Shown: one piece after another, positions 1,105-1,512 of the stretch | Position numbering within the stretch: the stretch's first letter is position 1 | Layout: each line of letters starts with the position of its first letter | Source: Naegleria gruberi | Taxonomy: Eukaryota | Length of the DNA: 1,512 nucleotides | Assembly (NCBI GenBank): GCA_000004985.1 | Contig: GG739399.1 | Reading direction: 5' to 3' (one strand) | Made by a program: the position numbers and the translations under genes | Notes under the pieces: model-generated | What the model was told of the DNA's origin: nothing | Databases searched by the model: none | Seen by the model: only the letters and a program-made list of their open reading frames with translations

Positions 1105-1118
1105 TTGTGTGTTTACTA

Positions 1119-1291
1119 TCAAAACACAACACTTACAATATACAATGTCCCATTACATTTCACATTTTGAACTTTTCCAAATTTAGCCTCACTAAGTGAG
1201 ACATTAGATGCAAAACCAAAAACACCACAAGTACCTGCATAAATACTTGCCAAGCCAGTAGTACCATCTAATTTTCTAACGCAATAATTGT
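1119..1291 (-). CDS. Terminal coding exon of the same gene: (D)NYCVRKLDGTTGLASIYAGTCGVFGFASNVSLSEAKFGKVQNVKCNGTLYIVSVVF, ending at the TGA at 1121-1119.
   Basis: The ORF-track entry 1119..1301 (-) corresponds to this exon, with the true 5' boundary at 1291 after the intron. The pattern 'G.iYfgD..N..vRKlDgtTG..s..AGt.G..G......L.eA.F......V..d.nG.LYI' resembles NHL / six-bladed beta-propeller blades. This is a family-level resemblance judged by eye. No search was run. Confidence 0.55.
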
Positions 1292-1340
1292 CTGTCATCA
1301 TTTTGTGTTAATTGAAAGAAATTGTCATCACTCAACATAC
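1292..1340 (-). other. Spliceosomal intron, 49 nt, minus strand: GTATGTTGAGTGATGACAATTTCTTTCAATTAACACAAAATGATGACAG.
   Basis: GTATGT 5' splice site. There is a TTAAC branch-point-like motif 16 nt upstream of the 3' AG. Without splicing, the upstream frame hits TAG at 1278-1276 after 'GDFGMLSDDNFFQLTQNDDRQLLR'. With splicing, the frame joins the long downstream ORF exactly (…GDIYFGDF-D-NYCVRKLDG…). The ORF-track Met at 1301 lies inside this intron, so it is probably not the true start. Confidence 0.5.
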
Positions 1341-1512
1341 CAAAATCTCCAAAGTAAATATCCCCAGTTAACGAATCTACTGTCATGGAATAAATGAACC
1401 TGATACAACATTTAAAGGGTCTGTTACTGCATTATTTGTGTTGCCATTGATTCCTTTTCCAAATAGTCTTGAAATGGTATTTGATTTAAAATCTAATTGC
1501 ACAACTCTGACA
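1341..1512 (-). CDS. Penultimate exon (partial, continues past the window edge) of an NHL-like beta-propeller repeat protein gene. It is read in two frames: coords 1511..1386 give VRVVQLDFKSNTISRLFGKGINGNTNNAVTDPLNVVSGSFIP, then an in-frame TGA at 1385-1383. The -1 neighbouring frame continues from ATG 1386-1384 with MTVDSLTGDIYFGDF up to the GTATGT donor at 1340.
   Basis: Manual translation of the reverse complement. There are 42 stop-free codons running in from the window edge despite the AT-rich context. The peptide carries repeat motifs (VRVVQLD ~ CVRKLD; SFIP-MTVDSLTGDIYFGD ~ AKFGKVQNVKCNGTLYIVS) matching the downstream exon. A canonical donor GTATGT at 1340-1335 joins in phase (g|ac -> Asp) to the ORF-track reading frame of 1119..1301. 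This exon is not in the supplied ORF track because it lacks an ATG. Confidence 0.5.

Follow-up and report, generated by a model that had tools for sequence, protein, structure and literature searches.

NHL propellers (PF01436; PF25021 for the teneurin NHL domain) usually have six blades and carry the motif N-x-x-[IV]-R-K…AG-x-G…L/F-x-x-P-x-G-v-a-v-D…G-x-l-Y-v-a-D. The same motif is found on the minus strand of the window, by which we mean the whole stretch of 1,512 nt that was analysed (GC = 32%). Its blades belong to a long subtype (~57 aa) with a Cys pair (NxC[IV]RK…AGTCG) and, unlike a complete NHL propeller, the window shows two blades only, one of which is broken in frame. Programmed frameshift sites offer a comparison for such a break. 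Sites of the −1 type consist of a slippery heptamer X_XXY_YYZ followed by a stem-loop or pseudoknot 5–9 nt downstream, whereas +1 sites include antizyme UCC_UGA and Euplotes AAA_UAR. As at these sites, a stop codon lies at the frame change in the window, but the window needs a −1 change, has neither the heptamer nor a stimulatory structure, and is non-homologous in its +1 frame. Unitary and duplicated pseudogenes with a small frameshifting indel are like the window in their single break, premature stop in mid-domain and protein-like flanks; the window differs in having no second lesion, and an assembly artefact would look the same. Lastly, Paramecium introns average 25 nt and are constrained at their first and last three bases (PMC8997360). 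A GT…AG segment of 20 or 23 nt likewise spans the break in the window, and its removal restores the frame, but the window gene has a 49-nt intron, the donor would be GTT, and conserved blade residues would be deleted.

About two blades are present in the window, and the gene leaves it at position 1511. The features that concern us are the following:

1398–1511, minus strand: frame B coding sequence upstream of the break (VRVVQLDFKSNTISRLFGKGINGNTNNAVTDPLNVVSG), which forms the initial half of NHL blade A and exits at the window end
1386–1397, minus strand: lesion zone TCATTTATTCCA (S F I P in frame B), with 1 nt missing or ~11 nt (1397–1387) surplus
1383–1385, minus strand: TGA stop that closes frame B, from translation
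1341–1386, minus strand: frame A sequence MTVDSLTGDIYFGDF(+G), which supplies the 'vavD..G.lYvaD' strands of blade A, from tblastn and profile alignment
1292–1340, minus strand: spliceosomal intron of 49 nt (GTATGT…TTAAC…ACAG, phase 1) that joins …YFGDF to DNYCVRKLD
1137–1291, minus strand: frame B exon that encodes blade B, (D)NYCVRKLDGTTGLASIYAGTCGVFGFASNVSLSEAKFGKVQNVKCNGTLYI (21.4 bits, E 7.5e-8 in the six-frame profile scan)
1113–1136, minus strand: 3' end, either VSVVF read-through and then TGA TAG TAA (1121–1113), or a GTAAGT donor (1136–1131)

Translation of the minus strand from 1511 in frame B gave VRVVQLDFKSNTISRLFGKGINGNTNNAVTDPLNVVSGSFIP (VRVVQLD…NVVSGSFIP), which ends at the TGA at 1385–1383. 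Frame A is −1 relative to frame B. It is limited upstream by a TAA at 1434–1432, is open from 1431 (…CSNRPFKCCIRFIYSMTVDS), reads …CCIRFIYSMTVDSLTGDIYFGDFG… across the break region, and from the ATG at 1386–1384 reads MTVDSLTGDIYFGDFG. A single nucleotide, A1386, is common to the CCA (Pro) of frame B and to this ATG. A sequence-only reading of the same DNA had placed the stop at 1385–1383, had seen protein-like sequence resume in the adjacent frame from 1386, and had noted that one added base would give SGSFIP-MTVDS. Our translations agreed with its coordinates and peptide strings, frame A did carry the NHL-like MTVDSLTGDIYFGDF, and the joined peptide was correct given that A1386 sits in both CCA and ATG. 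We confirmed that the reading frame breaks inside one NHL blade, and that the discontinuity is genuine.

The assignment to the NHL family was made through homologues. A direct Pfam match of the repaired and spliced window peptides was not found with hmmscan even at E ≤ 10; the Pfam NHL model is short (28 aa), and the blades in the window are divergent. A word-indexed protein search with the NHL part also returned no candidates. In contrast to the direct Pfam scan, an exhaustive phmmer search of 1.84 billion representatives gave 6,514 matches at E ≤ 1e-3, of which 1,070 were at E ≤ 1e-10. These relatives were multi-repeat proteins with 30–49% identity, and all six of the top homologues that were scanned against Pfam matched PF01436 NHL (E 2e-17 to 1e-65), plus the teneurin NHL domain. 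A profile search of the PDB with the window and homologue blades retrieved NHL propellers of known structure (E 5e-95 to 1e-14), namely teneurin-like proteins, SOQ1, NHLRC2, TRIM71, TRIM2, TRIM3, PknD and the designed Pizza proteins. The window itself has tandem blades with Y-x-x-D-x-x-N-x-x-[IV]-R and A-G-x-G, and both IYFGDFDNYCVRKLD…AGTCG and …VRVVQLD…FGKG match homologue blades column for column. The earlier identification of a beta-propeller of NHL repeats was thus sound, by transitive homology to proteins that pass as NHL and without a direct Pfam match.

The Cys pair of the window blades (N-x-C-[IV]-R-K … A-G-T-C-G) was also seen in a subset of the homologues. Likewise, an extra 'tG' before D-x-Y was shared by the window blades and a subset of homologues, including P0006, a CUB + NHL protein from a metagenome contig. 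From its residues, the window gene is suggested to encode a disulfide-containing, probably extracellular, NHL subtype. The cluster and contig contexts of the top homologues were metagenomes or MAGs only. A related-locus scan of metagenomes did not find a close relative, and there was no exact 38-mer match in the metagenome, viral and prokaryotic genome collections.

We scored both sides of the break against a double-blade profile (123 nodes) made from 300 homologue double blades with the window sequence left out; its consensus blade is NHRIRKVDAATGIITTVAGTGTAGFSGDGGAATAAKLNKPSGVAVDSAGNLYVADTE, 57 aa. Frame A together with the next exon scored 38 bits. The frame B part alone scored 7.0 bits (HMMER E = 3.7e-4), a value attained in 22 cases among 20,000 shuffles that preserve composition and in 2 among 20,000 random ORF peptides. 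In tblastn and profile alignments, the family's 'LxxPxG' ('L/F-x-x-P-x-G') fell on PLNVVSG of frame B. In the homologues the Gly of 'PxG' is followed directly by 'vavD..G.lYvaD', the window counterpart of which is MTVDSLTGDIYFGD in frame A. The tblastn matches of frame A included MAID-LAGNLYFGDFG, with GDIYFGD at 100% identity. Because the profile aligned the two parts as adjoining pieces in the correct blade register, we concluded that both sides of the break were coding. By these alignments, two halves of one NHL blade sit in two frames.

Downstream of the break, splicing of 1340–1292 returns frame A to frame B (…DIYFGDF/DNYCVRKLDGTTGLASIYAGTCGVFGFASNVSLSEAKFGKVQNVKCNGTLYI, that is, DNYCVRKLDG…GTLYI) and recovers the spacing Y-x-x-D-x-x-N-x-x-[IV]-R-K of the homologues. 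Among all stop-free GT-AG combinations this 49-nt intron was the best by profile (37.2 bits vs ≤30.0). Because a 49-nt GT-AG intron restores the family spacing, the locus is a eukaryotic gene with short introns on the minus strand, with its 3' part in the window. The blade B exon that follows (1137–1291) reached tblastn identities of up to 64% over 31 aa. At its end, the perfect GTAAGT donor at 1136–1131 could be joined to TTTAG at 1082 (55 nt), giving TIGY and a stop. The six-frame profile scan found no further NHL-like sequence downstream of 1113–1136. An apparent third blade at 1082–969 (YLDNWVLKLRG, stop, TTLMVKQPGTCFEG, stop), with in-frame TGAs, scored −1.8 bits, was missed by the six-frame scan, and was rejected as chance. 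A decayed blade at this place, if true, would have proved pseudogenisation; with its rejection, no separate sign of decay is left. Only the one lesion occurs in the ~330 nt of coding sequence, there are no in-frame stops elsewhere, and the other visible features are intact: the exons are open, the GT-AG boundaries canonical and the motif residues conserved.

Other features of the window were observed beside this gene. A U6 snRNA-like match at 977–1127 on the minus strand (…AGCCUGGAACCUGCUUUGAAGGAUGA…) scored 15.6 bits against a gathering threshold of 44 (E 0.95, Rfam), and this sub-threshold match probably arose by chance or marks a highly degenerate fragment derived from U6. On the plus strand, a GC-richer patch at 955–1063 contains a T-run and ACAG (955–967), an open frame at 968–1060 (TNFNYLGTCSIKIFILQSRFQAVSPLRWFSP) and a TGA at 1061–1063. 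This open frame could be the terminal exon of a convergent gene; it had no homologue in the word-indexed protein search and no exact product on record. The stretch of highest GC in the window is the 661–938 region of the plus strand, with the ORF MLKKLFEMSGNNKKGTPQRKQHAVSSPSHPKQRVDPPLPPKNRCAH, for which the word-indexed protein search likewise gave no homologue. This region has a TAA at 799–801, 6 nt before a donor-like GTAAGG (808–813), then CACTAAC (876–882) and CCTTAG (933–938), and looks like an exon plus intron, though the stop precedes the donor. Exact-product look-up of two window ORFs returned nothing on record. Lastly, the two blades contain an identical 11-mer that encodes FGK (1172–1182 and 1454–1464; ATTTGGAAAAG on the minus strand), at non-homologous positions, and this is likely chance.

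We compared the ways in which the frame could be repaired with the geometry of the homologues. Their blade period, from one N-x-x-[IV]-R-K to the next, had its mode at 57 aa (35% of 1,235 blades). Periods of 53–59 aa covered almost all of these blades; none was listed below 52 aa, and 61 aa accounted for 0.9%. The Gly-to-Asp distance between P-x-G and Y-x-x-D (G-to-D, n = 840) was 13 in 80%, 14 in 5.5% and 18 in 0.4%. Against the profile, the repairs compared as follows (a slash marks the junction):

One nucleotide added at 1386, minus strand, giving …VVSGSFIPMTVD…: period 61 aa, G-to-D 18, 4-residue insert 'sfip', 42.6 bits
Eleven nucleotides removed (1397–1387), minus strand, giving …VVSG/MTVD…: period 57 aa, G-to-D 14, 49.7 bits
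Other 1-nt repairs from 1431 to 1386, minus strand, giving various sequences: 41.8–46.4 bits

The claim that one added base restores a normal blade did not hold: it gives a 61-aa blade with an SFIP insert and the rare G-to-D of 18, and removal of 11 nt scores 7 bits more. The G-to-D spacing of 14 after the 11-nt removal is that of the match P0006 (CUB + NHL). An F-to-Y spacing of 13 had been offered as a further sign that the added base was right. The number is true of both blades, but the comparison pairs F40 with the F of AKFGK in the next blade, although the homologue of that F is L33 of DPLNVVSG; therefore, the identical spacing is a coincidence. The blade-length statistics of the homologues show that the intuitive repair of adding one base is neither the sole possibility nor the best fit. 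Removal of 11 nt outscored the 1-nt repairs by 3–7 bits, a likelihood advantage of ~15- to 130-fold. This gain is approximately offset by the far greater prior probability of 1-nt events, so that the lesion may be of either size. No local direct or tandem repeats marking an 11-nt duplication were found. The most likely position of the lesion is 1397–1386.

An intron over the break might make a lesion unnecessary, and we listed all pairs of the GT-AG, GC-AG and AT-AC types whose splicing recovers a frame free of stops. The frame-restoring GT-AG options were only 20, 23 and 53 nt long (43.6, 44.6 and 34.2 bits), and the GC-AG options of 65 and 68 nt scored ≤38.6 bits; the U12-type AT-AC candidates were 14–38 nt, lacked the consensus and were rejected. 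No GT-AG or GC-AG intron of typical size bridged the break with the blade kept: the 53-nt GT-AG, the 65- and 68-nt GC-AG and the in-frame 108-nt introns gave 29.9–38.6 bits and blades of 39–43 aa, with the best-conserved strands lost. All forms of rescue by splicing, taken together, are improbable. The form that an automatic annotator would probably call is a 108-nt intron from GT 1399 to AG 1292, in frame, or a 53-nt intron at 1399–1347, which would splice out the frame A segment and give …NVVS/DNYCVRKLD… in a functional protein whose blade is shorter. A CAG precedes the GT at 1399–1398, the 108-nt length keeps the frame, and the sizes fit those of the gene's other intron or introns. However, GTTCAT is a weak donor, carrying T at +3 and lacking G at +5. 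Such an intron would also drop MTVDSLTGDIYFGDF, the best-conserved strands of the blade, and leave 41–43 aa, far below the 53–59 aa of the homologues; the 108-nt form scores 29.9 bits and the 53-nt form 34.2 bits, vs 42.6–49.7. We regard this skipping of the frame A segment as quite doubtful. A ciliate-like tiny spliceosomal intron of 20 nt (1399–1380, GTTCATTTATTCCATGACAG) or 23 nt (1399–1377) would yield …NVVS/VDSLTGDIY… or …NVVS/DSLTGDIY…, respectively, in both cases without stops, and at its 3' end the 20-nt candidate has the heptamer ATGACAG in common with the 49-nt intron. This heptamer is found on the minus strand at 1292–1298, the end of that intron, and at 1380–1386, at the break. Against a tiny intron, the only well-supported intron of the gene is 49 nt and a candidate second one 55 nt, the GTT donor is atypical for the bases constrained in Paramecium (PMC8997360), both scores lie below that of the 11-nt removal, and the blade would shrink to 53–54 aa (2.8% and 6% of homologue blades) by losing its conserved Gly together with two or three strand residues. 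Nothing else in the sequence points to an organism of the tiny-intron kind. We judge this form highly unlikely. It had also been raised as a possibility that the frame B ORF is non-coding, with 1402–1512 an intron and the exon beginning in frame A at the AG at 1401–1400. A T-rich stretch does precede this AG, and frame A is open from 1431. Yet the frame B segment is NHL-like (7.0 bits, p about 1e-3 to 1e-4), keeps 42 codons open in DNA of 32% GC, and ends in register exactly at the 'PxG' that must precede the frame A 'vavD'. These results contradict the suggestion, which is extremely improbable. Two other candidates were rejected. Ciliate-type codes that read TGA, TAA and TAG as sense keep frame B open, but the fit is worse and the Y-x-x-D-x-x-N spacing is absent. 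Excision of an IES-type element would require ~11 nt, and known IES sizes are far above this.

Programmed recoding at CCA_UGA, by ribosomal frameshifting (−1 or +2) or by a short bypass, would yield the full-length protein. It would be consistent with the stop codon that occupies the A site where the shift would take place, and with the protein-like continuation in the −1 frame. Direct reading of frame B before the stop (GGT TCA TTT ATT CCA TGA) showed no X_XXY_YYZ slippery heptamer, tRNA-Pro on CCA would be unable to re-pair on TCC, and a hop would find no matching landing codon. The downstream structure was no better than that of shuffles: the 111 nt of 1400–1290 had a folding energy of −17.6 kcal/mol, matched or bettered by 130 of 200 shuffles (z = 0.43), with no downstream stem-loop or pseudoknot of the kind seen at −1 sites. 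A +1 shift at the stop, of the antizyme or Euplotes type, does not continue the protein, for it enters the third frame (…PDSRFVNWGY…) and not the NHL frame; in the six-frame profile scan the +1 frame, …DSRFVNWGYLLWRFWYVE and then a stop, had no NHL similarity. The sequence-only reading had held programmed frameshifting to be much less likely than an indel or an error, and the missing heptamer, the z of 0.43 and the wrong +1 frame support it; we consider recoding exceedingly unlikely. That the break is functional in any way, through a 20–23-nt micro-intron beside introns of ~50 nt or through non-canonical −1 recoding or bypass at CCA_UGA, so that a full-length NHL propeller is made, is very unlikely. 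A sequencing or assembly error deserves more weight, although on balance we consider it unlikely. The gene would then be intact, with one base lost from the consensus, perhaps from a TTT, TT or CC run within 1394–1387, and the protein would read …VVSGSF(I/Y)(P/S)MTVDS…, with a blade loop 4 residues longer than usual. The open exons, canonical splice sites and conserved motif residues elsewhere agree with this, all 1-nt repairs score well (41.8–46.4 bits), and blades of 61 aa (0.9%) or with G-to-D of 18 (0.4%) do occur in homologues, if rarely. On the other side, the repaired blade is atypical for the family, the profile favours the 11-nt removal by 3–7 bits, and the site has only short homopolymers, of at most 3 nt.

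The break is most likely an ordinary small insertion or deletion, that is, a young pseudogene or null allele, or else a sequencing error, and not programmed recoding. A real indel in the DNA of the organism, leaving a pseudogene or null allele, has in our estimation about an even chance. A small frame-disrupting indel would then have occurred between the Gly of 'PxG' (GGT 1400–1398) and the 'vavD' strand (ATG 1386), as a 1-nt loss or a surplus of ~11 nt (or 2, 5 or 8 nt). The spliced mRNA would be translated up to the TGA at 1385–1383, giving a protein truncated in mid-blade, and the copy would be a young pseudogene or null allele within a large, fast-evolving repeat family. Because all other visible features are intact, such a lesion would be recent. 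The locus does have what defines a frameshifted pseudogene, namely a frame-disrupting lesion in sequence homologous to a functional family. In favour of a real mutation, the 11-nt surplus preferred by the profile would be an untypical base-calling error. Against it, a single 1-nt assembly error accounts equally well for one lesion in ~330 nt, the T3, T2 and C2 runs in 1394–1387 and C3T3A3 at 1421–1413 are typical sites of indel errors, and the score gaps between the repair models are modest (3–7 bits) and offset by the 1-nt prior. We infer, at this strength, that the lesion resides in the organism's DNA rather than in the assembly, and that it would affect the protein in the way described.

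The locus is an ordinary frame-disrupted copy within a known repeat family. Gene prediction software will probably mask the break with a spurious intron. Whichever origin is correct, an automatic gene model across 1380–1400 is likely wrong, for example by a 108-nt intron that deletes two beta-strands. If the lesion is an artefact, the break flags an indel error in the assembly; if it is real, the gene would be another member of a large NHL-repeat family to have been inactivated recently.
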